A stretch of DNA of 64,000 bases from Escherichia coli (GTDB lineage Bacteria > Pseudomonadota > Gammaproteobacteria > Enterobacterales > Enterobacteriaceae). A program made the translations under genes and the position numbers. The first letter of the stretch is position 1, and each line of letters starts with the position of its first letter. Positions 8,871 through 26,572 of the stretch are shown here, piece by piece. The DNA lies in assembly GCF_030013205.1 (NCBI RefSeq), contig NZ_CP122648.1; one strand, given 5' to 3'. The notes beneath the pieces were generated by a model that did not search any database, was not told the DNA's origin, and saw nothing but the letters and a program-made list of their open reading frames with translations.

Positions 8871-9688
8871 TGCTCCGCGATTATCTTGATGGTTGTGGCA
8901 GTAAACGCCGCACCATTCGACTGAATGGTTAACGTGCTGCCATTTGTGGCAAGAAAGCCGTCTTTATCCACGCTGAAGAACGTAGCTAACAGGATGTTGT
9001 CGGTTGTTGTCGCTGAGTTGCGACTGCTTACCAGTGTGTCAGGAACAGAACCGGAAAATGTTAGCTGCATTGACCTGTTGGCGGTTCCGCTGGGCCACGT
9101 CCCGACGATCGACAGCTTGAAGAACAAGGTTTTGTTCTCGTTGAACACAACCATCTTGTTGTTAACGGTGTCGAAGAATGGTGCCAACGTGCCGGATGAC
9201 GGCGTGAGCGTTTTCAGCAGGCTAACAAGGTTGGTAGGCGCTGTCGGAATTGTTACCGATACCCCTGAGTAAACAACCTCTGATTTCTTGCGCGTGGTGG
9301 CATACTCAAGCGCAGATATTCTTGTTGCGTGATCACCAACTGTGCTTTGTAGCGTCGAAATACTTCCCTCTGCCGCTGTGAGCCTGGTATCAAGTGCGTC
9401 GATATCGGTTGTATTCTGAGTTATGCGCGCATCATGGTTTGCTAACTCAGATTCATTGGCAGCAATTCGCGTATCGTGATCAGCCAGCTCTGTTTCAGCA
9501 GCCGTAATCCTTGTTTCATGATCTGCAAGAGTGCTTTCCGCTGTTGCAATTCTATGTTCATGATTGATGAGAGTTGCTTCAGCAGCTTCAATTCTGGATT
9601 CATGGTCTGCAAGGGTGACATCCTGCTCATCGTTCCTAACCTGTGCATCATAAGCGCCCTGTCCGGCCTCGTTGGCTTTGTTAGCCAC
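8867..9688 (-). CDS. Tail needle (P22 gp26-like) with coiled-coil repeats and C-terminal knob
   Basis: GTG at 9688. [20 protein letters not shown] and ADHESRI heptads match recalled gp26. The frame stays open upstream to the coat stop, encoding [30 protein letters not shown] (gp26 N-domain-like) with no in-frame ATG. Confidence 0.75.
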
Positions 9689-9838
9689 GTTACCAACATC
9701 AGTGCCCTGTGCGATAACGTAAAGCAGATACGACTGCGAGAAGATATTGCGTGGAAGGACTGATGTGTCGAGCCGTGTAGAGCATTGTTCGTGCCATTGT
9801 CTTCTCCCAATAAAAATGGGGCCGAAGCCCCACCAAAA

Positions 9839-11092
9839 TTACTGCCCGGCAATAACGATGCCCGTATATTCAGGAACAAGTACAGAGCAACCGTACAGAG
9901 TGGTGAAACGCGCAGTGGTTACGCCTTTGATGTGGTCGAAGGCGTAAGACATGATCAGCGTAGCGCCCTGCTCGGTGGTTGCTGTCATTACCTGTGGACC
10001 CTGACCAGTCGGGAACGCCAGTTTGCCGTACATCAGCTCAACAGAACCATCAGCCCAGAACAGGTTGGCCGGTGCGGCATTCTTGTTGAGAATGGTGATT
10101 GCTGCGCTACTTGCCGCGTTAGCATCAACGTTTGCATATGGTCGGCTGGCGACATCCGCGTTGTCAGGCGGCAGAATTTTCGGGGAGATAGTTACTGTCG
10201 TTCCGCTTACTGCCAGAACGCGGAATACCTGCGGCTGCCCGGTGGTATCTTTGGTGATCTGGTGTACGGAATTAACCCCTGCAATGGTAAACGCATCGCC
10301 AACCTGCAAACCTTCAGCAGATACCGTAATGGTCCCCTGTCGGTTATCCACTGGCATATCGTTAGCATCTTTCGCTTCAACCTTGTGCGCAGGTGCTGCT
10401 GCCAGCGTAATGGAAGTTGCTGTACCCTTCGGAACACGACCAGAAATATCGGTCTTGTAGCTATCGAAGGACGCAACAGGAGGGATCTGCGCTTTTTCGT
10501 ATGCTGTCAGGGTTGCGCCCTGAGCATAGGCACGGTGACCAAGCTCGCCAGCAAGGTCTTTGTAGTTGAAGGGGTTCCAGAAAGAGCGACGATTGATACC
10601 CTGCGGTACACCAATCGCCGTCATGGTGGCATCAATACCTGCCGCACAGTTCCACAAATCACGGCCCTGTGTACCTGTGGTTGAGTCAGCCATCGTGATC
10701 ACGTTAGTAGCACGCTGCGTGACCATGGAAATCAGGTCCGAGTCAATCTGTGCAGCAAGGCGCATACCTGCGGCGCGACCAGCTTCAGTTTTATGTTCCG
10801 GGTCACGCATTTCACGCGCATCCAGAGTGTACAGAATGTTTTTCGGCTCCTTGAACACAGAAGGAACAAGGCGCTGAACCAGTGCTGTTGGCGTTTTGCT
10901 GCTGAGGTCGAGGCCTTCCTCAATGTTCATGTGGTAATGCTGCGGACGATACAGAACATCACCTGCTCGCTGCATTGCTGTATCACCGGGACGGAATTTT
11001 TTAGCGTTACGGGAAACTACGCAGGCGGCCTCAAAGCCTTCAACGTAGTTTTCGAACATGATTTCAAGGTCTTTTGCTAATTGGTTAGCCAT
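9839..11092 (-). CDS. Major capsid (coat) protein, P22 gp5-like
   Basis: 417 aa following scaffold; C-terminal region similar to recalled P22 coat. Confidence 0.8.
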   Translation of the reverse strand: MANQLAKDLEIMFENYVEGFEAACVVSRNAKKFRPGDTAMQRAGDVLYRPQHYHMNIEEGLDLSSKTPTALVQRLVPSVFKEPKNILYTLDAREMRDPEHKTEAGRAAGMRLAAQIDSDLISMVTQRATNVITMADSTTGTQGRDLWNCAAGIDATMTAIGVPQGINRRSFWNPFNYKDLAGELGHRAYAQGATLTAYEKAQIPPVASFDSYKTDISGRVPKGTATSITLAAAPAHKVEAKDANDMPVDNRQGTITVSAEGLQVGDAFTIAGVNSVHQITKDTTGQPQVFRVLAVSGTTVTISPKILPPDNADVASRPYANVDANAASSAAITILNKNAAPANLFWADGSVELMYGKLAFPTGQGPQVMTATTEQGATLIMSYAFDHIKGVTTARFTTLYGCSVLVPEYTGIVIAGQ

Positions 11093-11110
11093 GCTTAATG
11101 CTCCGATAGG

Positions 11111-12004
11111 TTATTTTTTTGCCTTTTTAGCGGCGAAATACGGCGTCCAGTCACCAGTTTCCAGCGCCTTGGCTTTCAGTTTGTCGAGGTTATTGATTAC
11201 TGCGCCGTTGCTCCCCTTAACTGTCGGGGTTGTGGCTGCCGTGGTTTTTGCTTTTGGCATGATTCTGGCCTTCGATTCGATACGTTCCAGCAGACGACCA
11301 ATTGCTACGGGGTTGGTAGCTTCTGCCAGTTGCTTGCGCAGTTCAGCGTTGCGACCGAGCGCCAGAACAACGATTTCCGGCTTCTCTGACTCAAACAGGA
11401 TCGCGTTTTGTGTCTCGATGGGGATTTCCTCGAGTACGGCCTGTTCTGCTTCCTGATAGCCAGGAACCTTGAGAGCCTTAACACGTTGCTGATATTTGGA
11501 TAATCGCTCTTGATAGGCAGCCTGAAGCTCCTGCTCCTTCTGCTTGCGAGCCATCTCCTGTTGCTGGTACTTGCCGTTATCCTCTGCCCACTTAGCCATG
11601 CGTTGCTGATAGATTTCTTCATCGAAACCGATGTCCTCATCATCCAGTTTTGGCATTCGCGGTGGTTGAGTGATTACCGGCTGCTGCTCGACAGGTTTCT
11701 GAGACTGACGCATCAGCTCTTTCAGCTCGCGGTCTTTCTCTTTAATCGTCTTGCGCAGGTGTTTTACCAGTCCATGCTCTGCGCTATCTTCACTGGTTGG
11801 CGAATCCAGCTTTTCGTCACCAAAGTAGAATTCCTGTTCTGATTCGTCGTCATCAGTTTCAGTAGCTTCCTCTGCATCATTGCCGGAGGACTCACTGCCA
11901 TCTTCTGTTTCGACTTCTTCAGCCAGTTCGACATCATCAGGAATCTGCTCTGATGTATCGGTTTCGATTTCAACTTCTGGTGTGTTTTCTGCCATCTGGT
12001 CCAT
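11111..12004 (-). CDS. Scaffolding protein
   Basis: 297 aa, highly acidic N-terminus, Lys/Glu-rich helical protein between portal and coat. Confidence 0.8.
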   Translation of the reverse strand: MDQMAENTPEVEIETDTSEQIPDDVELAEEVETEDGSESSGNDAEEATETDDDESEQEFYFGDEKLDSPTSEDSAEHGLVKHLRKTIKEKDRELKELMRQSQKPVEQQPVITQPPRMPKLDDEDIGFDEEIYQQRMAKWAEDNGKYQQQEMARKQKEQELQAAYQERLSKYQQRVKALKVPGYQEAEQAVLEEIPIETQNAILFESEKPEIVVLALGRNAELRKQLAEATNPVAIGRLLERIESKARIMPKAKTTAATTPTVKGSNGAVINNLDKLKAKALETGDWTPYFAAKKAKK

Positions 12005-12094
12005 TTGTTACCCCTGTTTACTCGATGTTCAGCCCATCGGAAGGCAATAGGGTGCCAGGCCTCATAAAGACAGCCATTGCACGTTATGGGTTAA

Positions 12095-14293
12095 TTACTG
12101 CTGTGGTTGTTGCTGAGTTGATTTTTGCAGGATGCTGCTGATGTCCATGCGCTGCGCATGGCCCTGTGCCTGACTTTTCAGGACAAGCTCTGCATCAGCA
12201 CGGGCATTGTCTCCTTGCTGTTGCTGGAACTGTCCGAGCAGTTTCAGCGCCTCACGGATATCAGATTTCTGCTGACTATCGGCAGATGCGAGTATTTTCA
12301 CAACATTTGCCGCTGCAACCTGAGCATCAGTCTGTGCCTGGAATGCTTTAACCTGAATGGCTGCCTGTTCGTTCTGCGCTTTCTGCAATTCAGCCTGACC
12401 AGCAAGAAGCTGACCTTGCGCTGCAACCATAGCCGGATCTGGCTGACTGGCCTGTTGTTGTTTCGCCTGTTCAACCATCTGCTGTTCTTCTGGCGTTCTC
12501 GGCTTGATAACTCCAGACAGAAGCAACTGATTGCGGTTGTATTCTTTAAGGTCGTCCATCCCTTCGCCGTCCATATTGTCGAGGATCATCGACGATACAA
12601 GGTCGTGTTTCGGCGTTCCGGGCGGGATAAGTGCCAGCATGGAAAGTAACGACTTAACCGTTGCATCACGGCGAGTAGCGAACGACTGACCAACATCGAC
12701 AGTCACTTCATAGTTACCCTGCGAAAGGTCGTTAAGCGCGATAACCTGCCCTGTCTGACGGTCAACCACTTCACCAGTCATCAGCGCCACGTCATCGCTG
12801 CCGTCCTCATTAACGATACGCATCGGCGTATCACTGCCATAGACCTCACGCGCCATAGAAAGCCACACAACGCCAGCGCGACGCATGGATTTAGCCATGT
12901 TGTCCATGTAGATATAGGACTGCGTGTCCATCCGGTTAAAAATGCTATCAACGGTATCGGTGGCGACGTTGCTCGGCATGTTCTCAAGCTGCGACGCACC
13001 TGTAATTTGCTGAATAGCCGTTCCGGTGTACTGCAATAGCCCGGCAAGAGCTGGAGGCATTTGTGTCGGAGGCGTATAACTGCTGACCTGAGCCTGCGCA
13101 GTAATATCTCCGTTTTTGTTTTTCAGACTGACCATCGGCAGGAACGCCGGGCGCTTTTTGTTGCGCTCCGCCCAATGAGTGGCGAGAGGACCAGGAATCA
13201 TGTCAACATCAACTACAGGAATGCCATCACCGCCAGCCTGAGTAGCGTTATCTGCAATCATGGAAACCATCAGGTTCTCAAGACGCTGTGCATCCATCGC
13301 TTTTGCTGCGTGACCTTCGATTCGCTCCTGATTATCAACAAATGATCGACGCCCATATACCGGGATGAGAGGAATATGTTCGCCCGGAATACGCTTCGGT
13401 TCTTCCAGCCATTCAGCGCCAGACAGAAGACCGCAATAAACGCGGCGCTTCTTCACCGTTCGCTCGCCAATCAGTTCGAATGCACCATCGGTCAGCTCGT
13501 CGACAATATCTTTGATTTGCTCTTCATCATAAATTGCCGTTTCTCCGCTAACAGGGTTGCGCCACGCCGTGAGCTTCACCTTCTCTATGCGAACTTCGTA
13601 GTAGCGTCCAACATAGATGGCATCGGGCGTTGACCAGTCATACTGAGTACCAGTGTCATCACGAGAAAGGCTTGCTGCGATGGAATCAGGGTATTCAGCC
13701 TCGAACGCTTTGGGCGTCATGGAGAACATTTCCATAGCCCACATAGCATCAGAGCGGTCATATTGCTTGCTGTCCTGATCGAAGAAGACGCATGTCGCTG
13801 GGTCGTAAACAGGAAGAAGGCTGATGCGTCGCTGCTCGTTACTCGGATCCATTTCATCTTCGTAATCGGCACACATGCGGAAACAACCGAATCCGCCCGT
13901 TACAGCATCATCAAATGCGTTATCACACGCTTCACCACCGGATGTTTCCTGATAGTCAGCGCGGAATTTACCATTCATCTTTTCGGCTAACGCTTCCGAT
14001 GCCTTATCGTCCTTCGGCCTGAATTTAACGCTGATGCGATTCTGTCGATACTCGCCAATGATGCGATCACATTCACGGGCAATCTTATTCAGTTCAAAGC
14101 GCGGGTAATGCTCAAACCTGCCTTCATCAAATGAGTAACCAGCGTTTGTGCTGCCTTCCCACTGTGCGCCGGATACCCGGACGAAACGTTGAGCCTCAAT
14201 AATCTGCTCACGCATATCCTGCGTTGCTGACCAGGCATTATCAAAGTTGCACAGCACCTTGCGATGCCAGTCAGTCATCTTTTTTTCTGCCAT
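12095..14293 (-). CDS. Portal protein, P22 gp1-like
   Basis: 732 aa; C-terminal PRTPEEQQMVEQAKQQQASQPDPAMVAAQGQLLAGQAELQKAQNEQ closely resembles the recalled P22 portal barrel region. Confidence 0.9.
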   Translation of the reverse strand: MAEKKMTDWHRKVLCNFDNAWSATQDMREQIIEAQRFVRVSGAQWEGSTNAGYSFDEGRFEHYPRFELNKIARECDRIIGEYRQNRISVKFRPKDDKASEALAEKMNGKFRADYQETSGGEACDNAFDDAVTGGFGCFRMCADYEDEMDPSNEQRRISLLPVYDPATCVFFDQDSKQYDRSDAMWAMEMFSMTPKAFEAEYPDSIAASLSRDDTGTQYDWSTPDAIYVGRYYEVRIEKVKLTAWRNPVSGETAIYDEEQIKDIVDELTDGAFELIGERTVKKRRVYCGLLSGAEWLEEPKRIPGEHIPLIPVYGRRSFVDNQERIEGHAAKAMDAQRLENLMVSMIADNATQAGGDGIPVVDVDMIPGPLATHWAERNKKRPAFLPMVSLKNKNGDITAQAQVSSYTPPTQMPPALAGLLQYTGTAIQQITGASQLENMPSNVATDTVDSIFNRMDTQSYIYMDNMAKSMRRAGVVWLSMAREVYGSDTPMRIVNEDGSDDVALMTGEVVDRQTGQVIALNDLSQGNYEVTVDVGQSFATRRDATVKSLLSMLALIPPGTPKHDLVSSMILDNMDGEGMDDLKEYNRNQLLLSGVIKPRTPEEQQMVEQAKQQQASQPDPAMVAAQGQLLAGQAELQKAQNEQAAIQVKAFQAQTDAQVAAANVVKILASADSQQKSDIREALKLLGQFQQQQGDNARADAELVLKSQAQGHAQRMDISSILQKSTQQQPQQ

Positions 14294-14294
14294 A

Positions 14295-15710
14295 TCAACC
14301 TACACCACAAGGAATTGAGTAACTGGAATAGTCGGGTTGCGCAGCCGACTCTGGGCAATGCATACACATCATCAGCGCATCAGCCAGGTTAGGAGATGGA
14401 ATACCGAGCTTCTGCTTCATTTCGACCTTAGTCATAAGCTCCAGCTTCCCGTTGTTATTGAATTTGCGCTGAATCTGCGTCAGTTCTGCAAACAGCTTCT
14501 CCAGCATCTTCTCGCCTATCGCTTCTTTGTCAAAACTCAGCATGTCGTCGGGGTCCGCATACTCACCGTGAACAACCGCCCGATATGTCAGATACAGCCT
14601 GTCAGCCAGCGCGTAATAGAATTGCGCTCGCTTATTGCGGAATACATCGCCAATAGTGCGAACGTTGTCGCCCTGTACGGCTTCATCAGCCCATGCTCCG
14701 GCCTGATAAGGCGAATCTTCATCAAATGGCGATTCGCTGCCCTTGAACATCGTGGCGGTGATTTTCTTACCGGAGAACGCTTCCGCTGTCTGTCTGCGTA
14801 GACCTGCACCAACACCATCACCATCCCACAGGTAATGGTCAGCGCCGTCTTCAATAGCCAGCGAAGTAGCCCAGTCAGCACCCTCGTTGATGTCCATCAG
14901 CAGGCCTTCGGCAATGCGCTTAACAACCGAACCGTGACGCGATGCATAACCTTTAGCATCTGGCCCTGTATCTGATGGGTCATGTGCAGAAACAACCGCG
15001 CCTTTCGCTTTCCATCCGAGTTTCTTGTGCGCATCGGTTGCGGCTTCAAGCCATTCACGTTTGATGATTGCCATATCACTTGCGCTTACTGGCTCACCAA
15101 GCCAGATGTGACGATACAGTGTCTGATTTCTGCGTTTACACTCTTCCATCTCCAGACGGAGAACTTCAGGAAAATGCGGGTTGTCGGTGTAGTTCACCGT
15201 CAGCAGGCAAATATCATCGGGAGGATTTACAACGAATCGCTGATAGGTATCGTCGAGGATGTTCTTCGGGTTAAAGCTCACCCATATTTCGGAAAACGGC
15301 TTGCGGATGGTTGGTATCAGGATGTCCCATGATTCCTTTGTTACCGCTTCCGCTTCTTCCACCCAGCAGATATCAATGCCTTCTAGCGATTTAATCTTCG
15401 TTGGGTTGTTTTTTATGCCGTAGAACATGAATTCAGCATTCGTTCCGAGATGACGAATCATTGAACGCTGAATTTCAAACTCAGCCGAATACCCTTCACG
15501 CTCGATGGTGTCTTCAAGCAACCGGATTACCGAATCGCTGATACTGTTTTGCAGTTCACGAGCGCAGAGAATACGCACAGGCTGCCGACGCGCCGCTTCA
15601 ACAAGCAGCCTCGCAATTGCCCATGACTTACCGCTACCTCGACCGCCTTTGGCGACTTTGTAGCGATGCGCCTCAATGAACGGTTCAAAGATAGGATTAA
15701 TCGAGGTCAT
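14295..15710 (-). CDS. Terminase large subunit
   Basis: 471 aa with Walker A-like KGGRGSGKS near the N-terminus; sits between terS and portal. Confidence 0.9.
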   Translation of the reverse strand: MTSINPIFEPFIEAHRYKVAKGGRGSGKSWAIARLLVEAARRQPVRILCARELQNSISDSVIRLLEDTIEREGYSAEFEIQRSMIRHLGTNAEFMFYGIKNNPTKIKSLEGIDICWVEEAEAVTKESWDILIPTIRKPFSEIWVSFNPKNILDDTYQRFVVNPPDDICLLTVNYTDNPHFPEVLRLEMEECKRRNQTLYRHIWLGEPVSASDMAIIKREWLEAATDAHKKLGWKAKGAVVSAHDPSDTGPDAKGYASRHGSVVKRIAEGLLMDINEGADWATSLAIEDGADHYLWDGDGVGAGLRRQTAEAFSGKKITATMFKGSESPFDEDSPYQAGAWADEAVQGDNVRTIGDVFRNKRAQFYYALADRLYLTYRAVVHGEYADPDDMLSFDKEAIGEKMLEKLFAELTQIQRKFNNNGKLELMTKVEMKQKLGIPSPNLADALMMCMHCPESAAQPDYSSYSIPCGVG

Positions 15711-16147
15711 TTTCCGAATAGAGTGCTCATCGGTGATGTTTCAATCTGAATTGCGCCGCCGTCTTTGCCTGTTAGCTCGTGATCAACCTTGTCGCGCCAT
15801 TTATCCTTCTGTCGGTTCTTAAGCCAGAAGATGGCAGCGGTTGTATCAGGCGGGTAATACTTCTCAAGCGGAGTTTCGACAATTCTGTTTTCAATAACAC
15901 GAATATCGATGTCTGGAGCCACGAAGCCCATAGCGCGTTGATAAAGACGATCACTAACTTCTGCATCAGCGACGGCCTTACCCTTTTTTATGGACTCCGA
16001 AAACTTAGGATAATCAATCTTCCACTTGTTAATAGTTGACTCACTGACTTCAAAGAAATCAGCAAGTTCTGCATCGGTGTAGCCCAGCAAGCACAGTTTG
16101 CGTGCCTGTTCGGCATACGCCTCTTGATACTTTGTTGGGCGCGCCAT
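15707..16147 (-). CDS. Terminase small subunit
   Basis: 146 aa with N-terminal HTH-like region, overlapping the terL start. Confidence 0.8.
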   Translation of the reverse strand: MARPTKYQEAYAEQARKLCLLGYTDAELADFFEVSESTINKWKIDYPKFSESIKKGKAVADAEVSDRLYQRAMGFVAPDIDIRVIENRIVETPLEKYYPPDTTAAIFWLKNRQKDKWRDKVDHELTGKDGGAIQIETSPMSTLFGK

Positions 16148-16149
16148 GT

Positions 16150-16392
16150 TTATGCTCCGGTGGTGAACAGGTCTAACGCTTCCTTCGATTTACGCACCGC
16201 TTCGATAGTGCGGGTCGTGATATCCGAATTAGCGCCGCCTGACTGGAAGTGAATTTTGAATAGTTCAAGCTTCAGCTCGTCAGTGCCAATGAACTGAAAT
16301 GCTTCTTCTGCGGCTGCGTTCTGGTTCATGACCAGTTTGTAAATCTCTAACTGGAATTTCTGTTCTTCAGTCATGGGAATAATCTCTGCCAT
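16150..16392 (-). CDS. Hypothetical phage protein upstream of terS
   Basis: 80-aa ORF tightly packed against terS. Confidence 0.45.
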   Translation of the reverse strand: MAEIIPMTEEQKFQLEIYKLVMNQNAAAEEAFQFIGTDELKLELFKIHFQSGGANSDITTRTIEAVRKSKEALDLFTTGA

Positions 16393-16495
16393 TGTTGGCT
16401 CCGTTTATCCGTTAAAAGGGATATCAGTTAAGTTATCCCGTGTAGGGTATAAGCCATTATCAAAGCCACTCTGTAGGGAATGGCTTTTGTAATAA

Positions 16496-16876
16496 CTACT
16501 GTTCGCTTAGCTTCTGCTTCAGCAAGTAACCTTCGAGCATCCAGATTTTGTTTACAGCATTCTGCCGGGCAATCTTCCGACCAATTTCTGCATCAAAGTT
16601 TTCCGGGCTTGCACAGGCACTCTCTCCGGTAACGGTGAAGCCATTCTTCAGCACCAGTACGCAGAAAGTGAGCAACTTCAATGGTGATAAATCACGATCG
16701 CCTTCTTCTGGTTTTTCCCTGCCACAATATTCGTTGCTGGAAATGGCACCATTTCGTCCATCATAAGCAGTAAAGTAATGCTCGCTTTTAATCACGTCTT
16801 CGATGTGCTGCGGGGTGATTCGCGGTGCCGTTTTGCCTTTCTCAACGATTTCTTTTTCGATTTGCTGGTCGTTCAT
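16496..16876 (-). CDS. Phage protein of unknown function (possibly Gp49/Sf6 gp66-like)
   Basis: 126-aa ORF between the lysis remnant and terS; family assignment is recalled from position only and is unverified. Confidence 0.5.
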   Translation of the reverse strand: MNDQQIEKEIVEKGKTAPRITPQHIEDVIKSEHYFTAYDGRNGAISSNEYCGREKPEEGDRDLSPLKLLTFCVLVLKNGFTVTGESACASPENFDAEIGRKIARQNAVNKIWMLEGYLLKQKLSEQ

Positions 16877-17114
16877 AATTATGACCCTGTGGAGTGGTTG
16901 CTTGATTAGGATGTCTTTCCATCAGTCCGCCACCACAAAGAATCTTTTTTGCCATAAGGCTGGAGGTTCATCTTTCAGTGGCTGCCAGTGTTATTTCCCC
17001 ACTTACTGGCTTGGGTTGTTTCGCTGTACTGCCGTAACTGGTTACCCAGAATAAATTTTGGTTTCATTATCAAGCCCATCCGTAGATAGGCTTTGTAATG
17101 AACTGGCTCTTATC

Positions 17115-17267
17115 TCAACGCAGCCCCTTACCGCGCGCCAGATGCTCAATATCAAGCATCAGCAATGAGATGTTTAATCTGGATTCACTCCAGAAGTGAT
17201 CACCACCCTGTCTACAGAGCCAGATGTGAAGGATGATGAGTAGAATTATCGCTATCATCGAAGGCAT
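17115..17267 (-). CDS. Possible small ORF (50 aa) downstream of Rz remnant
   Basis: Hand translation MPSMIAIILLIILHIWLCRQGGDHFWSESRLNISLLMLDIEHLARGKGLR with AGGA RBS; start overlaps the Rz stop. Could be spurious. Confidence 0.25.
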   Translation of the reverse strand: MPSMIAIILLIILHIWLCRQGGDHFWSESRLNISLLMLDIEHLARGKGLR

Positions 17268-17480
17268 TGCGTCCTGATGTACTCCTGCAGGTAGTTAACC
17301 TGCGCGGTTATCCTGTCGATTCCACTTCGGAGACGGTAATAATTGAGTTCAGCATCTGCTGTAAGTCTTGGGCTTTCTCCATCGCCCATGCCGCTGGCTC
17401 TGGTCGTTGACTTTGCACAGGTGGCGGCGACTTGCAGGCGCTTACGACCAGCAGAAACATCAGCACGGAGACTTTCGATA
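17255..17480 (-). pseudogene. Rz: Rz (i-spanin) remnant, C-terminal part only
   Basis: ESLRADVSAGRKRLQVAATCAKSTTRASGMGDGESPRLTADAELNYYRLRSGIDRITAQVNYLQEYIRTQCLR aligns with the recalled lambda Rz C-terminus. The upstream part of the ORF has no Rz-like TM/N-terminal region and overlaps xis antisense. Confidence 0.65.
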
Positions 17481-17499
17481 TCGAAGCAGAGGACATCAA
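17308..17499 (-). CDS. Rz1: Rz1-like o-spanin lipoprotein, embedded in Rz frame +1
   Basis: Signal peptide with lipobox (LLVVSAC) followed by a proline-rich segment KSPPPVQSQRPEPAAW; the true start may be an internal Met. Confidence 0.65.
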   Translation of the reverse strand: MMSSASISKVSVLMFLLVVSACKSPPPVQSQRPEPAAWAMEKAQDLQQMLNSIITVSEVESTG

Positions 17500-17587
17500 C
17501 GACTGCTATAACCACTGGATGATATGGGCGCAGATAGCGCATGCAGACGTAACAAATATTCGAATTGAAGAACTGAAAGAACACCAA

Positions 17588-17608
17588 ACCGCCTGATGGC
17601 GGTTTTTT
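17588..17608 (+). terminator. Terminator-like hairpin upstream of xis
   Basis: ACCGCC-TGAT-GGCGGT followed by TTTTTT. Confidence 0.4.
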
Positions 17609-17635
17609 CTTGCGTGTAATTGCGGAGACTTTGCG

Positions 17636-17854
17636 ATGTACTTGACACTTCAGGAGTGGAACGCACGCCAGCGGCGCCCAAGAAGCCTTGAAACAGTTCG
17701 TCGATGGGTACGCGAGTGCAGGATATTCCCTCCTCCGGTTAAGGATGGAAGAGAGTATCTGTTCCACGAATCAGCGGTAAAGGTTGACTTAAATCGACCA
17801 ATAACAGGTAGCCTTTTGAAGAGGATCGGAAATGGGAAGAAGGCGAAGTCATGA
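17636..17854 (+). CDS. xis: Excisionase, lambda Xis-type
   Basis: 72 aa, MYLTLQEWNARQRRPRSLETVRRWVRECRIFPPPVKDGREYLFHESAVKVDLNRPITGSLLKRIGNGKKAKS matches recalled lambda Xis; overlaps the int start. Confidence 0.93.
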   Translation: MYLTLQEWNARQRRPRSLETVRRWVRECRIFPPPVKDGREYLFHESAVKVDLNRPITGSLLKRIGNGKKAKS

Positions 17855-18902
17855 GCGCCGGGATTTACCCCCTAACCTTTATATAAGAAACAATGGATAT
17901 TACTGCTACAGGGACCCAAGGACGGGTAAAGAGTTTGGATTAGGCCGAGACAGGCGAATCGCAATCACTGAAGCTATACAGGCCAACATTGAGTTATTTT
18001 CAGGACACAAACACAAGCCTCTGACAGCGAGAATCAACAGTGATAATTCTGTTACGTTACATTCATGGCTTGATCGCTACGAAAAAATCCTCGCCAGCAG
18101 AGGAATCAAGCAGAAGACACTCATAAATTACATGAGCAAAATTAAAGCAATAAGGAGGGGGCTACCTGATGTTCCACTTGAAGACATCACCACAAAAGAA
18201 ATTGCGGCAATGCTCAATGGATACATAGACGAGGGCAAGGCGGCGTCAGCCAAGTTAATCAGATCAACACTGAGCGATGCATTCCGAGAGGCAATAGCTG
18301 AAGGCCATATAACAATAAACCCGGTCGCTGCCACTCGCGCTGCAAAATCAGAGGTAAGGAGATCAAGACTTACGGCTGACGAATACCTGAAAATTTATCA
18401 AGCAGCAGAATCATCACCATGTTGGCTCAGACTTGCAATGGAACTGGCTGTTGTTACCGGGCAGCGAGTTGGTGATTTATGCGAAATGAAGTGGTCTGAT
18501 ATCGTAGATGGATATCTTTATGTCGAGCAAAGCAAAACAGGTGTAAAAATTGCCATCCCTACAACATTGCATGTTGATGCTCTCGGGATATCAATGAAGG
18601 AAACACTTGATAAATGCAAAGAGATTCTTGGCGGAGAAACCATAATTGCATCTACTCGTCGTGAACCGCTTTCATCCGGCACAGTATCAAGGTATTTTAT
18701 GCGCGCACGAAAAGCATCAGGTCTTTCCTTCGAAGGGGATCCGCCCACCTTTCACGAGTTGCGCAGTTTGTCTGCAAGACTCTATGAGAAGCAGATAAGC
18801 GATAAGTTTGCTCAACATCTTCTCGGGCATAAGTCGGACACCATGGCATCACAGTATCGTGACGACAGAGGCAGGGAGTGGGACAAAATTGAAATCAAAT
18901 AA
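17832..18902 (+). CDS. int: Tyrosine integrase, lambda Int-type
   Basis: 356 aa, near-identical to recalled lambda Int from MGRRRSHERRDLPPNLYIRNNGYYCYRDPRTGKEFGLGRDRRIA to HLLGHKSDTMASQYRDDRGREWDKIEIK. Confidence 0.95.
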   Translation: MGRRRSHERRDLPPNLYIRNNGYYCYRDPRTGKEFGLGRDRRIAITEAIQANIELFSGHKHKPLTARINSDNSVTLHSWLDRYEKILASRGIKQKTLINYMSKIKAIRRGLPDVPLEDITTKEIAAMLNGYIDEGKAASAKLIRSTLSDAFREAIAEGHITINPVAATRAAKSEVRRSRLTADEYLKIYQAAESSPCWLRLAMELAVVTGQRVGDLCEMKWSDIVDGYLYVEQSKTGVKIAIPTTLHVDALGISMKETLDKCKEILGGETIIASTRREPLSSGTVSRYFMRARKASGLSFEGDPPTFHELRSLSARLYEKQISDKFAQHLLGHKSDTMASQYRDDRGREWDKIEIK

Positions 18903-18990
18903 TGATTTTATTTTGACTGATAGTGACCTGTTCGTTGCAACAAATTGATAAGCAATGCTTTTTTATAATGCCAACTTAGTATAAAAAAGC
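18903..18990. other. attL: lambda P' arm plus 15-bp core TTAGTATAAAAAAGC (core at 18976-18990)
   Basis: Sequence after the int stop matches the recalled lambda attP P' arm (GATTTTATTTTGACTGATAGTGACCTGTTCGTTGCAACAAATTGATAAGCAATGCTTTTTTATAATGCCAAC) and ends in the reverse complement of the GCTTTTTTATACTAA core; bacterial DNA toward ybhC follows. Confidence 0.85.
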
Positions 18991-19036
18991 AGGCTTCAAC
19001 GGATTCATTTTTCTATTTCATAGCCCGGAGCAACCT

Positions 19037-20320
19037 GTGAACACATTTTCAGTTTCCCGTCTGGCGCTGGCATTGGCTTTTGGCGTGACGCTGACCGCCT
19101 GTAGCTCAACACCGCCCGATCAACCTCCTTCTGATCAAACCGCGCCTGGTACCTCTTCTCGCCCGATTCTGTCGGCAAAAGAAGCGCAGAATTTCGATGC
19201 TCAACACTATTTTGCATCCCTGACACCAGGTGCGGCAGCGTGGAATCCTTCCCCGATTACCCTGCCTGCGCAACCTGACTTTGTTGTCGGCCCGGCGGGT
19301 ACTCAAGGTGTAACGCATACCACGATTCAGGCGGCGGTAGATGCGGCAATTATCAAGCGCACCAACAAGCGCCAGTATATTGCCGTGATGCCTGGTGAGT
19401 ATCAGGGAACGGTGTATGTCCCTGCCGCTCCGGGTGGAATTACTCTGTACGGTACAGGTGAAAAACCGATTGATGTGAAGATTGGGCTTTCCCTTGATGG
19501 TGGCATGAGCCCTGCCGACTGGCGTCACGACGTCAACCCGCGCGGCAAATATATGCCAGGTAAACCAGCGTGGTATATGTACGATAGCTGCCAGAGCAAA
19601 CGCAGCGACAGTATCGGCGTTCTCTGCTCTGCGGTCTTCTGGTCACAAAACAATGGCCTGCAACTGCAAAACCTGACCATCGAAAACACGCTGGGCGATA
19701 GCGTAGATGCGGGTAACCATCCGGCGGTGGCACTGCGTACTGATGGCGACAAAGTGCAGATCAATAACGTCAACATTCTCGGTCGTCAGAACACCTTCTT
19801 TGTTACCAACAGTGGTGTGCAAAACCGTCTGGAAACCAACCGTCAGCCGCGTACTCTGGTGACCAACAGTTACATTGAAGGGGATGTGGATATCGTTTCT
19901 GGTCGCGGCGCAGTGGTGTTCGATAATACCGAATTCCGCGTGGTGAACTCACGTACTCAGCAAGAAGCGTATGTGTTTGCACCGGCAACACTGTCTAACA
20001 TCTATTACGGTTTCCTCGCCGTAAACAGCCGTTTCAATGCTTCCGGTGATGGCGTGGCGCAACTGGGCCGCTCGCTGGATGTTGATGCTAATACCAACGG
20101 TCAGGTGGTGATCCGTGATAGCGCCATCAACGAAGGTTTTAACACGGCGAAACCGTGGGCCGATGCGGTGATTTCCAATCGTCCATTCGCAGGTAACACC
20201 GGCAGCGTTGACGATAGCGACGAAATACAGCGCAATCTGAATGACACTAACTACAACCGCATGTGGGAATACAATAACCGCGGCGTGGGTAGCAAAGTGG
20301 TTGCAGAGGCGAAGAAGTAA
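19037..20320 (+). CDS. ybhC: Outer-membrane lipoprotein, pectinesterase-like acyl-CoA thioesterase YbhC
   Basis: 427 aa, GTG start, lipoprotein signal LTACSS; K-12 synteny beside the lambda attachment site. Confidence 0.9.
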   Translation: MNTFSVSRLALALAFGVTLTACSSTPPDQPPSDQTAPGTSSRPILSAKEAQNFDAQHYFASLTPGAAAWNPSPITLPAQPDFVVGPAGTQGVTHTTIQAAVDAAIIKRTNKRQYIAVMPGEYQGTVYVPAAPGGITLYGTGEKPIDVKIGLSLDGGMSPADWRHDVNPRGKYMPGKPAWYMYDSCQSKRSDSIGVLCSAVFWSQNNGLQLQNLTIENTLGDSVDAGNHPAVALRTDGDKVQINNVNILGRQNTFFVTNSGVQNRLETNRQPRTLVTNSYIEGDVDIVSGRGAVVFDNTEFRVVNSRTQQEAYVFAPATLSNIYYGFLAVNSRFNASGDGVAQLGRSLDVDANTNGQVVIRDSAINEGFNTAKPWADAVISNRPFAGNTGSVDDSDEIQRNLNDTNYNRMWEYNNRGVGSKVVAEAKK

Positions 20321-20362
20321 AAAAGAAAACCCGATAGTCTGAACCATCGGGTTAATGAAACT

Positions 20363-20391
20363 GGGCGCTATATTTCATAGCGCCTTTTTTT
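20363..20391 (+). terminator. Intrinsic terminator after ybhC
   Basis: GGGCGCTAT-ATTTC-ATAGCGCC followed by TTTTTTT; probably bidirectional with convergent ybhJ. Confidence 0.6.
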
Positions 20392-22651
20392 ACATCTGAC
20401 GGTTTTTATTGAAGTTAATCAAACTACCCGCCTTGATAATCTCGCGCTCTTCGGCCGTCAGGCTTTCCATGTAAAGCGTAATTTCCGTTACCGGCGCATC
20501 TTCATGGATCACATAACCTTTAAACGTCGTACCCGGATTATCCAACGCTGCTTTAATGCCAGGGATGTAAATGTAATCCCCCACTTCAAACGTTGGTGCT
20601 TCCGCCATTTGCAGCGGTAACATCCCCCAGTTGATGACGTTAGAACGGTAGCGTTTAGTCGCGTATTCCTCGGCAATATTCGCCAGACCGCCAATCACAC
20701 GCTGGCAGCTCGCCGCCTGCTCACGCGCAGAACCATCGCCTGGTTTCACCGCATAGACCATGCTGCCAATTTCAGTTTGCAGCGGATCAATATGCTCCTG
20801 ACCAGCAATCTGCTTAATGCGCGCAAACACCTCTGTCAGCTCACTGACATTCCCCGCCAGACGCTGATTTTCCAGTTCAGCAGTCGCTTTACTTCTGCCA
20901 ACATAACCTGGATCGCGGCGTGACAGGGTAAACTCCGCCAGACCAATCGGATTTGAACGATAAGAAGAGGTTTCACCGGAAGGAATCAGTTCGTCGGTGG
21001 TGGTCACTTCGTCGAGGATCTTCGAGCACACTTTGAGGACGATATTGTCAGTCAGCGCACCCAATTCCGGCCAGTCTTTAATGTTCGGTCCGTAAATCAG
21101 CGGTTGCTGGGTCGCCCCTTTCACAAAGCCCTGATAAACACGGTTTTTATACGGCGTTACATCGAAGGCGTACTCCGGCACGTTGTCCCAGCAATCCAGC
21201 TCGCTGGCAGAGGTTAAATAGCCACCGTTTGCCGCAGTCGCAGCGATGGAACGAGCGTCCATCAACGCCACTGCTGACATCTGCCCATTGGCTGGCTTAG
21301 AGCCTTCGCGGTTCGGGAAGTTACGCGTGGTGTGGCGAATACTCAAACCGTTGTTGATTGGCGTATCGCCCGCGCCAAAGCATGGGCCGCAGAACGCGGT
21401 TCTGATGATTGCGCCTGCGCCAATCAAATCTGCTACCACGCCTTTTTTGGCTAAATCCATAAACACCGGCTGTGATGACGGGTAAACCGCCAGCGAGAAG
21501 GTGTCATTGCCACAGGATTGACCGCGCAGTGCATTCGCCGCCGCGATGACGTTTTCGTAGTTACCGCCAGAACAGCCCGCGATAATCCCCTGCTGCACTT
21601 TCAGGCGACCATTTTCCACTTTATCCAGCAGCGAGAGTTTGGCTTTACCGTGTGCCACGCGTTCGGACTCAATTTCAATCTCACGCAGAATGTCGGTCAG
21701 GTTCTGGCTCAGCGTGTCGATTTCATACACGTTGCTCGGGTGAAACGGCAGCGCAATCATTGGCTTGATGGCGCTTAAATCAACGCTGATGCAGCCATCG
21801 TAGTACGCCATCGGTTGAGGGTTAAGCTGGCAGTAATCCTGGCCGCGACCGTGCAGCGCCAGCCAGTTATGGACTTCTTCATCGGTTTGCCAGACAGAAC
21901 TTAAACAGGTCGTTTCAGTGGTCATAACGTCAACGCTGTTACGGAAATCGGTAGAGAGCGCAGCAACACCGGGACCTACGAATTCCATCACTTTGTTTTT
22001 GACGTAGCCGTTTTTGAACACGGCACCGATGATAGCCAGCTCCACATCCTGTGGCCCCACATACGGCGCAGGTTTTCCGGTCAAATGCACCGCAACCACG
22101 CCCGGATAGTCGATATCCCAGGTGTCATTAAGCAGCTGTTTTACCAACTCGCCGCCGCCCTCACCGACTGCCATTGTCCCTAATGCACCGTAACGGGTGT
22201 GGCTGTCTGACCCGAGGATCATTTTGCCGCCGCCTGCCATCATCTCACGCATATATTGATGGATGACCGCAATATGCGGAGGCACAAAAATACCGCCATA
22301 ACGCTGAGCCGCCGATAAACCAAAAACATGGTCATCACCGTTAATGGTGCCGCCGACGGCGCAAAGTGAGTTATGGCAGTTGGTCAGCACATACGGCAGC
22401 GGGAAACGTTCCATACCGGACGCTTTAGCGGTCTGTACAATACCAACAAAGGTAATATCGTGAGAGGCTAATGAATCAAACTTAATTTTAAGTTTATCCA
22501 TATTTCCGGACGTATTATGAGAAGAGAGAATAGACCAGGCAATAGTGCCTTTTTTTGCTTCTTCTTTTTTAATTTCGCCGGTGAAATGTTCTTCGGCAAT
22601 TATTTCGTTATTACTGGCGAGAAACACGCCTTTTTCAGATAACTTGATCAT
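20390..22651 (-). CDS. ybhJ: Aconitase-family hydratase YbhJ
   Basis: Aconitase-like 4Fe-4S cluster motifs ([15 protein letters not shown]); the K-12-length product (753 aa) starts at MIKLSEKG, 8 codons inside the track ORF. Confidence 0.9.
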
Positions 22652-22833
22652 CAAATGCTCCAGATATCTGCGCACCGAGAAGTGCGCAGAAAGATAATAA
22701 ATGGATATACTCTAAATAATTAGAGTTGCAGGAAGGCGACTAGCGAGTGAATCCCCAGGCGCTTACATAAGTAAGTGACTGGGGTGAGCGAACGCAGACG
22801 CAGCACATGCAACTTGAAGTATGACGAGTATAT

Positions 22834-24267
22834 TTACAGCATGTTCCAGCCGATCAGCATATTCCACCACCACACGCCGAGGGTGATATGCACCAGGAAG
22901 GTTAATATCGTCAGTACCGCACCGACCAACCACCAGGATTTAATATCGTTATAACCCACGCCAAAGATGACCGGACCTGCCGCGCCGCCATAGTGAGTAA
23001 CCATGCCGCCATAGGAGTTGGAGAACAACAGTGCCAGCGCGGTTAACATTAACGGTGCGCCGGAGACGTTCGCCAGCATGGCAAATACCGGTAACATAGC
23101 AACGATATAGGCACTACCGGAAGCGAAGAAATAACGAACGATGATGCTGAGGAAAATAATAACGAAGAAAGCAACGTTACCGTGACCATCAAATGCCAGG
23201 TTATTTTTAAAGACTTCAGCTAACCATTCGAAGAATTTAACTTTCGATAATAAGGAGCTTAAGCCGATAATACCGCCGTACCAGATTAAGGTATTCCAGC
23301 CGCCTTTATTTTTAACCACGTCTTCCCAGGTAACGATACCCAGCAGCAGCATGGTCGCCATAACAACGATTGCCACGGTGGATTCATCAACCCCCAGGGA
23401 CTTACTGAAAATCCAGCCCAGCAGCGCCAACACAAAGACACCGAGCAGCATTTTTTCGCGGATTTTCATCGGTCCCAGTTCGGCAAGGCCCGCTTTGGCG
23501 ATGGTTTTATTATCCACCTTCTTAATTTCTGGCGGATACATGGTGTAAATCACCAGCGGGGTGACCAGCAGCATAATGATGCCCGGCAATCCGGCGGCCA
23601 GCGCCCATCCACCCCAGCTAATTTGCAGGTGCAGAATGTCGTTGATCATTTTCAGCGCCAGAATGTTCCCCGCCATTGCGGTAAAGAACATATAGCTGGT
23701 GGTTTTGGTGACCATGTAAATGGACATCATCAGGTAATGTCCAACACGACGCGGACTTTTTTCCGGTTCTGACCCCAAAGCCACCGCCACGCTGTTGATG
23801 ATCGGTAACACAATGCCGCCCGCACGCGCGGTGTTAGACGGTGTTGCCGGAGCCAGTACCAGATCGAGGAATACCGTAACGTAACCCAGACCCAGCGTGG
23901 TGTTACCGATTTTACCAATCAGCAGATAGGCAATACGTTTACCTAAGCCGGTGGTCACAAATGCGGCGCTTAAGGTAAACGCCGAGAACACCAGCCAGGT
24001 GGTACCTGAAGAGTAACCGCTTAATACGGCGGTGGTCTTAAACGCACCGTCGGATAAGTTACCGACCACCACCATTGAGGCAGCAACGGCAATTAACAGT
24101 ACGACAGGTTCCGGGAAAGGCTTGATAACCAGCCCCACAATGGCCGCCAGGTAAATACCAAAAAGCACCCACGCCAGTTCGCTTAATCCTGCCGGAGCTG
24201 GCATAAAGCCAATAATACATGGGATCGCTAATATCAGAATTAGCTTCCATAACGATTTTTTATTCAT
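22834..24267 (-). CDS. ybhI: DASS-family anion transporter YbhI
   Basis: 477-aa polytopic membrane protein; K-12 synteny. Confidence 0.9.
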   Translation of the reverse strand: MNKKSLWKLILILAIPCIIGFMPAPAGLSELAWVLFGIYLAAIVGLVIKPFPEPVVLLIAVAASMVVVGNLSDGAFKTTAVLSGYSSGTTWLVFSAFTLSAAFVTTGLGKRIAYLLIGKIGNTTLGLGYVTVFLDLVLAPATPSNTARAGGIVLPIINSVAVALGSEPEKSPRRVGHYLMMSIYMVTKTTSYMFFTAMAGNILALKMINDILHLQISWGGWALAAGLPGIIMLLVTPLVIYTMYPPEIKKVDNKTIAKAGLAELGPMKIREKMLLGVFVLALLGWIFSKSLGVDESTVAIVVMATMLLLGIVTWEDVVKNKGGWNTLIWYGGIIGLSSLLSKVKFFEWLAEVFKNNLAFDGHGNVAFFVIIFLSIIVRYFFASGSAYIVAMLPVFAMLANVSGAPLMLTALALLFSNSYGGMVTHYGGAAGPVIFGVGYNDIKSWWLVGAVLTILTFLVHITLGVWWWNMLIGWNML

Positions 24268-24342
24268 TTAAAATCCTGTTCTTTCTGTATGACTCATACA
24301 GAAGTCCTTTATTGATTGTCCTTATCCTGACAACGAATTTTT

Positions 24343-25395
24343 TCAGGGAAGAAAAACTTCACCGGAAAATATTTTTCTGGTTGTCCGAATAACAGATGCG
24401 CGTAACGTCGTGGCATCCTGACCTTCATTACTTAAATGAACGTCGAGCGCACCACTGGGGTGTTCAATATTGATATTGCCGTATCCTACAGAAGGGACGA
24501 TTTGTCGGGTGACGGTGCCTTCCAATGCACAACTACTGGAAATGGCAATAGCACCGGTTATCGCCAGCGCGCGATGGCAAGAATGCGGCATAAAATAACG
24601 CACATTAATTGCTCCGCCTTTCTGCGCTGGAGAAATAAGCACAGGTTTAGGGATAACCATATTACTGACATCGCCTAAGCCCATTGCTTTACCCGCTTGT
24701 AGACGGATAGATTCAATGCGGGCTAATAATGCTTTGTCGGCATCCAGCTCCGCCGGTAATTCATAGCCTGTTTTTCCCAGATATTCAGCAGGAATAATGA
24801 CAACTGGCATCGCCATATCGATACAAGTCACCGGGACATCGTCAAAATAATCAATCTGATTATCAGTCGGGAAGATTTTTCCGGTTTTGGTTCCGGCGGC
24901 ATTCAGGAAAGTGAGCGCAACCGGTGCGGCAGTACCCGGTACGCCGTCAATTCTGGCGCTACCCTCGTACTCGACAACACCATTTGGCGTTTGCACATCA
25001 GCTTCGATGAACGTACCCGTATTGACGTTGCGGATACGTACGCGGGTTACTGGCGAAGTCGCTGCAATCAAACCATTTTCAATGGCGAATGCCCCAACCC
25101 CAGACAACATATTGCCGCAGTTTGGTGTTGTATCGACACGCTGCTCATGGACAATAACCTGAGCAAACAGATAATCGACATCAGCACGCGGATCGTCGGA
25201 ATGGCTAATAATGGCGACTTTACTGGTCAGCGGATTACCGCCGCCAATACCGTCAATTTCCAGATCGTTACCGGAACCCATAATTGCCATCAATATTTTA
25301 TCGCGCTGCGTTTGATCTTCGGGTAGATGTTCCGCTAACAGGAACGCGCCCCTCGAGGTTCCACCTCGCATCATCACGCAGGGTATTTTTTTCAT
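24343..25395 (-). CDS. ybhH: PrpF-family isomerase YbhH
   Basis: 350 aa; K-12 synteny. Confidence 0.9.
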   Translation of the reverse strand: MKKIPCVMMRGGTSRGAFLLAEHLPEDQTQRDKILMAIMGSGNDLEIDGIGGGNPLTSKVAIISHSDDPRADVDYLFAQVIVHEQRVDTTPNCGNMLSGVGAFAIENGLIAATSPVTRVRIRNVNTGTFIEADVQTPNGVVEYEGSARIDGVPGTAAPVALTFLNAAGTKTGKIFPTDNQIDYFDDVPVTCIDMAMPVVIIPAEYLGKTGYELPAELDADKALLARIESIRLQAGKAMGLGDVSNMVIPKPVLISPAQKGGAINVRYFMPHSCHRALAITGAIAISSSCALEGTVTRQIVPSVGYGNINIEHPSGALDVHLSNEGQDATTLRASVIRTTRKIFSGEVFLP

Positions 25396-25578
25396 AATAA
25401 TGCCCTCAATTTAAAAACATAACTTATTGCGATATGGTTACATTAAGGGCAAAGCATCTCTAATGACTTTAGCTCAACGATTAATAACATTTTTTCATTA
25501 ATTTAAGTTGGCTAAATGCAGTTAAAATTTTTAACGGCCAGCCACCCAAAATCGACGCTTCCATTTTCCGGAGTAATA

Positions 25579-26532
25579 ATGAAGCATGAATTATCAAGTA
25601 TGAAGGCATTTGTCATACTGGCAGAGTCCAGTTCATTTAACAATGCCGCTAAATTACTCAATATTACGCAACCTGCATTAACGCGAAGAATAAAAAAGAT
25701 GGAGGAAGATTTACATATTCAACTATTTGAGCGTACAACTCGCAAGGTTACGTTAACAAAAGCAGGAAAAAGATTGCTCCCGGAGGCGCGGGAATTAATA
25801 AAGAAATTCGATGAAACGCTTTTTAATATTCGTGATATGAATGCTTATCATCGTGGTATGGTGACATTAGCGTGTATTCCGACCGCAGTATTTTATTTTT
25901 TACCGCTGGCAATCGGTAAATTTAATGAGCTTTATCCCAATATTAAAGTGCGGATTCTGGAACAAGGTACGAATAATTGCATGGAATCGGTGCTGTGTAA
26001 CGAATCAGACTTTGGCATAAACATGAACAACGTCACAAATTCATCCATCGATTTTACCCCACTGGTCAACGAGCCGTTCGTGCTGGCCTGTCGGCGTGAC
26101 CATCCATTGGCCAAAAAGCAGCTTGTAGAATGGCAGGAGTTAGTGGGTTACAAAATGATTGGCGTACGCTCCTCCAGCGGCAACCGACTGTTGATAGAAC
26201 AACAGCTGGCCGACAAGCCCTGGAAGCTGAACTGGTTTTACGAAGTGCGTCATCTTTCGACGTCATTAGGACTGGTGGAGGCGGGACTGGGGATTTCGGC
26301 GCTTCCTGGTCTGGCAATGCCCCATGCACCCTATTCTTCGATTATTGGTATCCCGCTGGTGGAACCGGTTATACGTCGGACATTGGGGATTATTCGCCGC
26401 AAAGATGCCGTGCTTTCTCCGGCAGCTGAACGCTTTTTTGCCTTGCTGATTAATTTGTGGACTGACGATAAAGACAATTTGTGGACCAATATCGTCGAAC
26501 GCCAGAGACATGCGTTACAGGAGATAGGTTAA
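25579..26532 (+). CDS. ybhD: LysR-family transcriptional regulator YbhD
   Basis: HTH motif NITQPALTRRIKKMEEDL; start chosen at MKHELSSM (317 aa), 21 codons inside the track ORF. Confidence 0.85.
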   Translation: MKHELSSMKAFVILAESSSFNNAAKLLNITQPALTRRIKKMEEDLHIQLFERTTRKVTLTKAGKRLLPEARELIKKFDETLFNIRDMNAYHRGMVTLACIPTAVFYFLPLAIGKFNELYPNIKVRILEQGTNNCMESVLCNESDFGINMNNVTNSSIDFTPLVNEPFVLACRRDHPLAKKQLVEWQELVGYKMIGVRSSSGNRLLIEQQLADKPWKLNWFYEVRHLSTSLGLVEAGLGISALPGLAMPHAPYSSIIGIPLVEPVIRRTLGIIRRKDAVLSPAAERFFALLINLWTDDKDNLWTNIVERQRHALQEIG

Positions 26533-26572
26533 TACACCGGCGCAGAAGAGACTGCGCCGGGTAAATCAGCGG

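Follow-up and report, generated by a model that had tools for sequence, protein, structure and literature searches.

The locus lies in a 64,000-nucleotide stretch of E. coli DNA (the window), whose positions 16000-19000 are 100% identical to the finished, circular chromosome of ETEC4079 (NZ_CP122643.1), an E. coli from pig faeces in Belgium. On the minus strand it carries an intact small hydrophobic ORF and, upstream of it, remnants of the i-spanin gene Rz and of the o-spanin gene Rz1 embedded in the latter; these abut a truncated small gene, ORF55', which is followed on the plus strand by a hairpin, xis and int (Table 1).

Table 1. Features in and around the joint and segments collinear with vB_EcoP-720R6 (positions in the window)
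Feature	Position	Strand	Basis or remark
Second internal deletion junction, 3-bp TAG microhomology	9778..9780		720R6 comparison (context 8867-9838)
50-aa small hydrophobic ORF, intact, Sf6 gene 65 homologue	17115..17267	-	PHROG 11822 over full length, E=3.9e-38
Rz', i-spanin remnant, codons I72-R145 plus stop (74/145 aa)	17255..17479	-	alignments, profiles
Chimeric 170-aa mechanical ORF	17255..17767	-	antisense xis, intergenic hairpin and ORF55', in frame with Rz'
Rz1', o-spanin remnant, +1 frame, codons 6-61 plus stop; codon 5 partial (Leu to Ile)	17308..17481	-	
Six codons TTG ATG TCC TCT GCT TCG from the antisense ORF55' strand	17482..17499	-	direct reading, Sf6 comparison
Perfect 12-bp palindrome TTCGATATCGAA, joint at exact centre	17474..17485		sequence
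Deletion junction, 2-bp TA common to both parental sequences (microhomology)	17479..17480		homology limits on both sides
ORF55', codons 18-55, first 17 deleted	17480..17596	+	PHROG 676 positions 18-55/55, E=1.1e-23
G+C-rich hairpin, T-runs on both strands, terminator-like both ways	17586..17605		between ORF55 stop and xis start
xis, intact, 72 aa	17636..17854	+	69/72 identical to lambda Xis
int, intact, 356 aa	17832..18902	+	351/356 identical to lambda Int
Lambda att core TTAGTATAAAAAAGC, attL end of prophage, adjoins ybhC	18976..18990		sequence match
Segment collinear with 720R6 20277-26992	9778-16496		97.4% identity
Segment collinear with 720R6 27846-28233	17092-17480		97.9% identity
Segment collinear with 720R6 44197-44326	17479-17608		95.4% identity
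Segment collinear with 720R6 44771-46068	17605-18902		98.5% identity

Gene content of the prophage and of the region around the joint

The genes belong to a prophage of Sf6/P22-like type with lambda-type int and xis, integrated at the lambda attachment site, the flanks of which in the ETEC4079 record are bioA-ybhB on one side and ybhC-gal on the other. A second copy of the att core, matching at 14/15 positions, is found beside ybhB in the same record, and the two cores lie 20,361 bp apart, measured core-to-core; the remnant thus spans ~20.4 kb, as compared with ~38.4 kb for the prophage vB_EcoP-720R6 (720R6 in what follows). A repeat of the att core thus stands at either end of the element, at an established site of phage integration, as in a defective prophage. 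Its minus strand keeps genes of P22/Sf6 type for the tailspike, ant, arc, mnt, ejection proteins, needle, capsid, scaffold, portal and terminase, while xis and int occupy the plus strand beside ybhC.

An initial annotation of this DNA had confined the Rz-like homology to the C-terminal ~75 residues of a long ORF, and had described the upstream part as devoid of a transmembrane segment and antisense to xis. Both points agree with our results. Residues 97-170 of the 170-aa ORF, 74 in all, are identical to residues 72-145 of Sf6 Rz at 72/74 positions (E=5e-51) and match Pfam PF03245 (Phage_lysis) at positions 51-125/126 (E=2.5e-22) and PHROG 13 at positions 79-154/154. The proposed alignment with lambda Rz is significant as well (30/73 identical, or 41%, with lambda residues 80-152; E=5e-16), which disposes of the possibility that the similarity to Rz was only apparent. 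The first 96 residues, in contrast, resemble neither Rz nor any other protein matched, and codons 1-44 are antisense to xis. With a transmembrane threshold of 1.6 on the Kyte-Doolittle scale over a 19-residue window, no segment of the 170-aa ORF is of transmembrane grade, its maximum being 1.53 as against 2.63 for the transmembrane domain (TMD) of Sf6 Rz. This ORF is not a gene. An intact Rz reached in frame from a corrected start, which had been raised as the alternative, was rejected because the ORF lacks such a segment and because the Sf6 Rz N-terminus (residues 1-71), like endolysin and holin, has no tblastn match anywhere in the 64 kb.

Rz is a type II, N-in/C-out protein, anchored in the inner membrane by a single N-terminal TMD; in lambda Rz the TMD occupies residues 1-24, coiled-coil 1 residues 27-87 and coiled-coil 2 residues 121-150 (PMC5295617). 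Since the alignment of Rz' starts at lambda residue 80, Rz' is without its membrane anchor and has kept almost none of coiled-coil 1, and by the same alignment coiled-coil 2 and the C-terminal domain are kept. What Rz' retains of an i-spanin is therefore the homology in the periplasmic domain; the TMD, the complete pair of coiled-coils and the location in a lysis cassette are gone, the upstream neighbour being antisense ORF55'/xis and not holin and endolysin. PGAP labels the fragment 'i-spanin subunit Rz, missing N-terminus'.

The +1-frame ORF (17308..17499, minus strand) is identical to residues 5-61 of Sf6 Rz1 at 55/57 positions and covers the whole of Pfam PF06085 (positions 1-41/41, E=2.2e-20), positions 1-5 of the PHROG 3198 (Rz1) profile being left unmatched. 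Judged from its sequence, Rz1' keeps the n-region lysine, the h-region of the signal peptide, the lipobox VVSAC with its cysteine (codon 17434-17436) and the whole proline-rich mature part; it reads ...KVSVLMFLLVVSAC|KSPPPVQSQRPEP..., and the lipobox variant LVVSAC is also present in 720R6 and Chlobot. The initial annotation had spoken of an intact embedded Rz1, and as regards frame, lipobox and mature part it was right. It does not hold, however, for the 5' end. The Rz1 gene of Sf6 lies at 1417-1602 of the Sf6 segment and its homology to the window stops at 1589; given that Rz1 starts at 1602, the cut lies 13 nt inside the gene. Lost in this way were the AAGGAG Shine-Dalgarno sequence, the original ATG, codons 1-4 and a single base of codon 5. 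The native AAGGAG-N7-ATG is visible in the alignment of Sf6 and Rac, where the window has antisense-ORF55 sequence instead. Sf6 Rz1 accordingly begins with MLTRLSKVSVLMFLLVVNAC (MLTRLSKVS...) and the ORF in the window with (M)MSSASISKVSVLMFLLVVSAC (MSSASISKVS...), the apparent starts TTG 17499 and ATG 17496 both stemming from antisense ORF55'. Inspection of the sequence before these two codons revealed no purine run resembling a Shine-Dalgarno sequence. Rz1' thus has the lipobox lipoprotein features and the +1-frame embedding of an Rz1, but not a start codon and ribosome-binding site of its own.

PGAP places an rz1 pseudogene at 17374-17496 (21375-21497 of the ETEC4079 segment), which ends 66 nt before the real stop at 17308-17310, and flags it as incomplete at the 3' end; the C-terminus is actually complete and identical to that of Sf6 Rz1, the real defect being 5'. 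The case carries a lesson for annotation, in that a seemingly complete Rz1 ORF can be a chimera that takes its start codon from unrelated antisense sequence.

ORF55 is a small conserved gene located directly upstream of xis in lambda (lambdap35), 434 (ORF55), HK022 and Chlobot; its remnant in the window is labelled 'hypothetical protein, missing N-terminus' by PGAP. The hairpin that follows it is likewise found in lambda, between lambdap35 and xis. At the other end of the region, the hydrophobic 50-aa ORF suspected in the initial annotation to overlap the Rz stop is indeed present, overlaps the stop by 13 nt and corresponds to Sf6 gene 65. The gene 65 family (PHROG 11822) is conserved and has no assigned function. 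Homologues occur in 44 phage records, all at least 92% identical, which is too little divergence for a coding test, and in every record checked the homologue is found at the 3' end of Rz. The HF4s record gives the names 'Rz2 protein' and 'Rz1 protein' to the features annotated under the gene 65 match.

Position of the joint and sequences lost

A megablast search of 17050-17900 against phage records splits the query cleanly into two halves. Query positions 11-434 match the Rz/Rz1/gene 65 region of Sf6, mEp213 and mEp043, and positions 430-851 match the ORF55-xis-int region of Chlobot, HK022, 434, HK106 and others; no phage record in this search spans both halves. Homology on the Rz side (Sf6, 720R6, Chlobot) stops at 17480 and that on the ORF55 side (720R6, Chlobot, ETEC4075, lambda) starts at 17479. 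At the level of single bases, the Rz-side parent reads ...GGAGACTTTCGATA up to the break and GTCGCG beyond it, the ORF55-side parent reads ...AACAGAGTTA before the break and TCGAAGCAGAG after it, and the window reads ...GGAGACTTTCGATATCGAAGCAGAG across the joint, the TA at 17479-17480 being the only bases common to both parents. In Rz the cut falls at codon 71/72, corresponding to codon 5 of Rz1 in the embedded frame, and in ORF55 it falls at codon 17/18. The sequence comparisons thus confirm a deletion junction inside Rz within a defective prophage. The range of 17480-17560 first given for the breakpoint was sound, the junction lying at its low edge, and it is the recommended comparison with intact relatives of the prophage, here 720R6 and Chlobot, that fixes it at 17479/17480.

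The main reference for the missing segment was the Lederbergvirus prophage record of 720R6 (ON470605). This record includes uvrB-bio-ybhB, which means that 720R6 occupies the same chromosomal site in the same orientation as the ETEC4079 prophage. Gene order and strands are collinear with 720R6 on both sides of the joint, with a gene truncated at each side, and from the collinear segments (Table 1) it follows that positions 28234-44196 of 720R6 (15,963 bp) are absent from the ETEC4079 prophage. Relative to 720R6, the prophage is without the first 71 codons of Rz, endolysin, holin, tRNA-Thr, tRNA-Asn, Q, the nin and replication genes, cII, cro, cI, N, bet, ea genes, DUF551 and the first 17 codons of ORF55, so that immunity genes and early-left recombination and ea genes are among the losses. 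In Chlobot, a lambda-like siphovirus, the same two points are ~17.6 kb apart. The true undeleted parent was not found, and the size of the deletion is that given by relatives which are 95-98.5% identical. Within these bounds, the alignments establish the position of the junction, the collinearity with intact relatives and the gene content that was lost.

The same prophage contains a second internal deletion, by which 2,078 bp of 720R6 (18199-20276) are missing. Lost with it were genes resembling those for the head-completion proteins gp10 and gp4, the greater part of a small ORF, and codons 1-13 of the tail needle. PGAP annotates the needle as an intact CDS, yet its frame no longer has a canonical start. 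In another part of the window, an ORF of 754 aa runs uninterrupted at 4057-6321 on the minus strand and abuts the gene-20 homologue. PGAP annotates part of it (5074-6189) as a pseudogene for a lytic transglycosylase domain protein with both ends missing. At 6182-6189 the homology changes over from Sf101-like to Emek-like, which from the pattern of matches looks like a mosaic boundary; a third breakpoint at this place was rejected, since the 754-aa ORF passes through it without interruption.

The joint lies at the exact centre of a perfect palindrome of 12 bp. The palindrome exists because the parental ends, TTCGATA in Rz and TATCGAA in ORF55, are mutual reverse complements over 7 nt. Given the palindromic TA at the centre, five further complementary pairs would arise by chance in ~1 in 1,000 cases, a figure to be read in the light of the palindrome having been noticed after the fact; in the window as a whole there are 19 palindromes of 12 bp, with ~15.6 expected. 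Inverted homology by itself does not yield deletions, and we know of no mechanism that would use such a palindrome at a joint. The presence of the palindrome at the joint is probably a coincidence.

Origin of the joint

Truncated genes on both sides, collinearity with intact relatives, absence of an IS and an overlap of 2 bp together fit RecA-independent illegitimate recombination. We consider it very probable that the joint was made by a single RecA-independent illegitimate deletion of ~16 kb inside an Sf6/P22-like prophage residing at lambda attB. The integrated prophage would have been cut in codon 71/72 of Rz and in codon 17/18 of ORF55, and the two ends would have been joined by microhomology at the common TA, either through replication slippage or through end-joining. 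An overlap of 2 bp says little about any specific mechanism. A second deletion of ~2 kb with the same signature, here a TAG overlap, removed the head-completion genes. The fragments Rz', Rz1' and ORF55' are what is left at 17255-17596, with no lysis function: Rz' cannot be anchored in the inner membrane and Rz1' is stripped of its own translation signals. Deletion by an IS was rejected for the ETEC4079 joint, where no IS sequence is found.

It is improbable that the joint instead stems from illegitimate recombination involving two lambdoid prophages resident in the same cell, such as a P22-like and a lambda-like phage side by side in a tandem double lysogen at attB; the loss would then have far exceeded 16 kb. 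Such an origin might be suspected from the fact that ORF55' is 96.2% identical to its counterpart in the sister strain ETEC4075, whereas the neighbouring xis-int-ybhC stretch is 99.7% identical. In view of the lower value, some mosaic exchange may have taken place close to the joint. Moreover, the ORF114 cassette of ETEC4075 and 720R6 is absent from ETEC4079. However, 720R6 and ETEC4075 both combine P22-like morphogenesis genes with lambda-type int/xis in one prophage, at the same site and in the same orientation, and the presence or absence of ORF114 is a common polymorphism, so that a second phage is not required.

The cassette itself, known from phages 434 and HK022, measures ~445 bp and is situated between ORF55 and xis in 720R6 and ETEC4075 (720R6 44327-44770, corresponding to window 17597-17635), bounded by two similar terminator-like hairpins. 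It is missing from lambda, Chlobot and HK106 as well. Its absence from the window was therefore rejected as a part of the ~16-kb deletion and is regarded as a cassette polymorphism, lambda itself being without it.

Another proposal is that translation of the chimeric Rz1' ORF (MSSASISKVSVLMFLLVVSAC...) starts at the chance ATG, or at a GTG or ATG farther inside, and that the ORF has been kept as a stand-alone outer-membrane lipoprotein. In its favour, the frame is open to the native stop with n-region lysine, h-region, lipobox and mature part in place, and K-12 Rac offers a parallel in RzoR, which is annotated as a CDS. Among the 226 nt of Rz/Rz1 that are retained, three positions differ from Sf6; two of the differences alter Rz (G98R, S101G) and are silent in Rz1, as the proposal would lead one to expect, but the third, at position 40, does the opposite (N18S in Rz1, silent in Rz), and three substitutions are too few to carry statistical weight or to compare selection on Rz1' with that on Rz'. 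Against translation stands the deletion of the native Shine-Dalgarno sequence and ATG, with nothing similar to the former before the new starts. Moreover, no activity is known for an o-spanin that lacks its i-spanin partner (PMC5295617).

The prospects for transcription are poor too. A simple scan of 16400-19100 for sigma-70-like promoters on either strand returned 0 sites, as compared with 4.2 expected from shuffled sequences; the stretch scanned includes the place inside xis where lambda pI would lie, and the scan is thus probably too strict for pI. With no promoter match, a terminator-like hairpin (17586-17605) upstream of Rz'/Rz1' on the minus strand, and the late promoter and Q deleted, expression of the Rz', Rz1' and ORF55' fragments appears unlikely. 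For all these reasons we give a translated and retained Rz1' very little chance. Just as little is to be said for the wider idea that the joint is something other than a random scar, be it that the chimeric Rz1' is expressed as a domesticated outer-membrane lipoprotein or that the palindrome betrays a specific joining mediated by a hairpin or a nuclease.

An artefact of the ETEC4079 assembly, that is, a collapsed or chimeric join, might be suspected from a joint which occurs in one genome only and is centred on a 12-bp palindrome. This is highly improbable, since the chromosome is finished and circular, att cores are in place at both ends of the element, a second, independent deletion is present, other strains have comparable central prophage deletions at the same site, and no flanking repeats are long enough to collapse the assembly. 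Finally, hardly any credence can be given to an evolved satellite (a capsid-forming PICI or a mini-phage) naturally devoid of lysis and replication genes, a notion that could appeal to the retention of int/xis, terminase, portal, scaffold and capsid genes together with the lack of replication and lysis genes, but that founders on the truncation of both genes at the joint in mid-codon relative to many intact homologues, on the absence of a regulator or replication module of its own, on the P22-type tailspike, ejection-protein, ant, arc and mnt genes still present, on the further disabling deletion, which struck head-completion and needle genes, and on the occurrence of the arrangement in a single genome.

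Because the repressor, Q, replication, holin and endolysin genes and the gp4/gp10 homologues are absent, the 20.4-kb remnant should be unable to be induced, to replicate, to lyse the cell or to build virions. On this evidence the joint marks the prophage as dead, without genes for immunity, replication, lysis or head completion, and everything in the comparisons points to an ordinary scar of prophage decay. The type of joint is already known and all three fragments are already flagged by PGAP in RefSeq.

Comparison with related remnants

A 161-nt probe across the junction was covered to at least 80% in 1/5,426 complete E. coli genomes, and that genome was ETEC4079 itself; exact junction 25-28-mers gave 0 matches in IMG/VR and 0 in JGI metagenome contigs. 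Being private to the strain and defined to the base, the joint can serve to mark the ETEC4079 lineage, although it matters little beyond annotation.

ETEC4075 (NZ_CP122652.1, segment 8798-21862), a sister ETEC isolate from pig, has the same prophage ends at the same site; the tailspike-ant-arc end and the xis-int-ybhC end are each 99.7% identical to the window. In ETEC4075, however, head, lysis and replication genes were lost instead and IS2 copies are present, whereas the ETEC4079 joint is without an IS. The two strains represent independent decay of one ancestral prophage. In 13C1065T (NZ_CP019259.1, segment 6154-9595), an IS1 lies between an intact lysis cassette, made up of essD-rrrD-Rz and a gene 65 homologue, and xis-int. 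13C1065T and L6-21 share with ETEC4079 the att site, int/xis and the loss of the central early/immunity/replication segment; they differ in having the IS1 between essD and xis and, in 13C1065T, an intact lysis cassette. The losses in ETEC4075, 13C1065T and L6-21, which are associated with IS elements, indicate that central loss from prophages at lambda attB is recurrent, the particular joint of ETEC4079 being private.

The undeleted arrangement on the lysis side is seen in Sf6, where Rz and Rz1 are genes 63 and 64 and gene 65 is 96% identical; next come, as in the window, genes 66 (Gp49 family) and 67 (DUF2560) and then the terminase. The Rz/Rz1/gene 65 cassette of Sf6 type is also found in vB_EcoP-720R6, HK620, epsilon34 and Sf101. 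Unlike the remnant, Sf6 has a full Rz of 145 aa with its TMD, an Rz1 with its own start, endolysin and holin upstream, and a different integrase.

As far as sequence comparison can tell, the nearest precedent is the rzpR/rzoR pair of the Rac prophage of K-12 MG1655. Here too an N-terminally truncated Rz, the pseudogene rzpR (300 nt), contains an embedded Rz1 frame, rzoR; rzpR is fused directly to ydaW, a remnant of an early-region/replication gene, and nin/Q/S/R together with the 5' part of Rz have been deleted. Rac differs from the ETEC4079 prophage in that the Rz allele is of lambda type and was cut ~55 nt upstream of rzoR, which consequently keeps its AAGGAG and ATG and is an intact CDS. 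In ETEC4079 the allele is of Sf6 type, Rz1 itself was cut, 13 nt from its start, and the partner end is beside xis, so that the early region, too, has gone entirely. The ETEC4079 prophage is one more lambdoid prophage that has lost its lethal central part, next to K-12 Rac and the IS-mediated variants at the same site.
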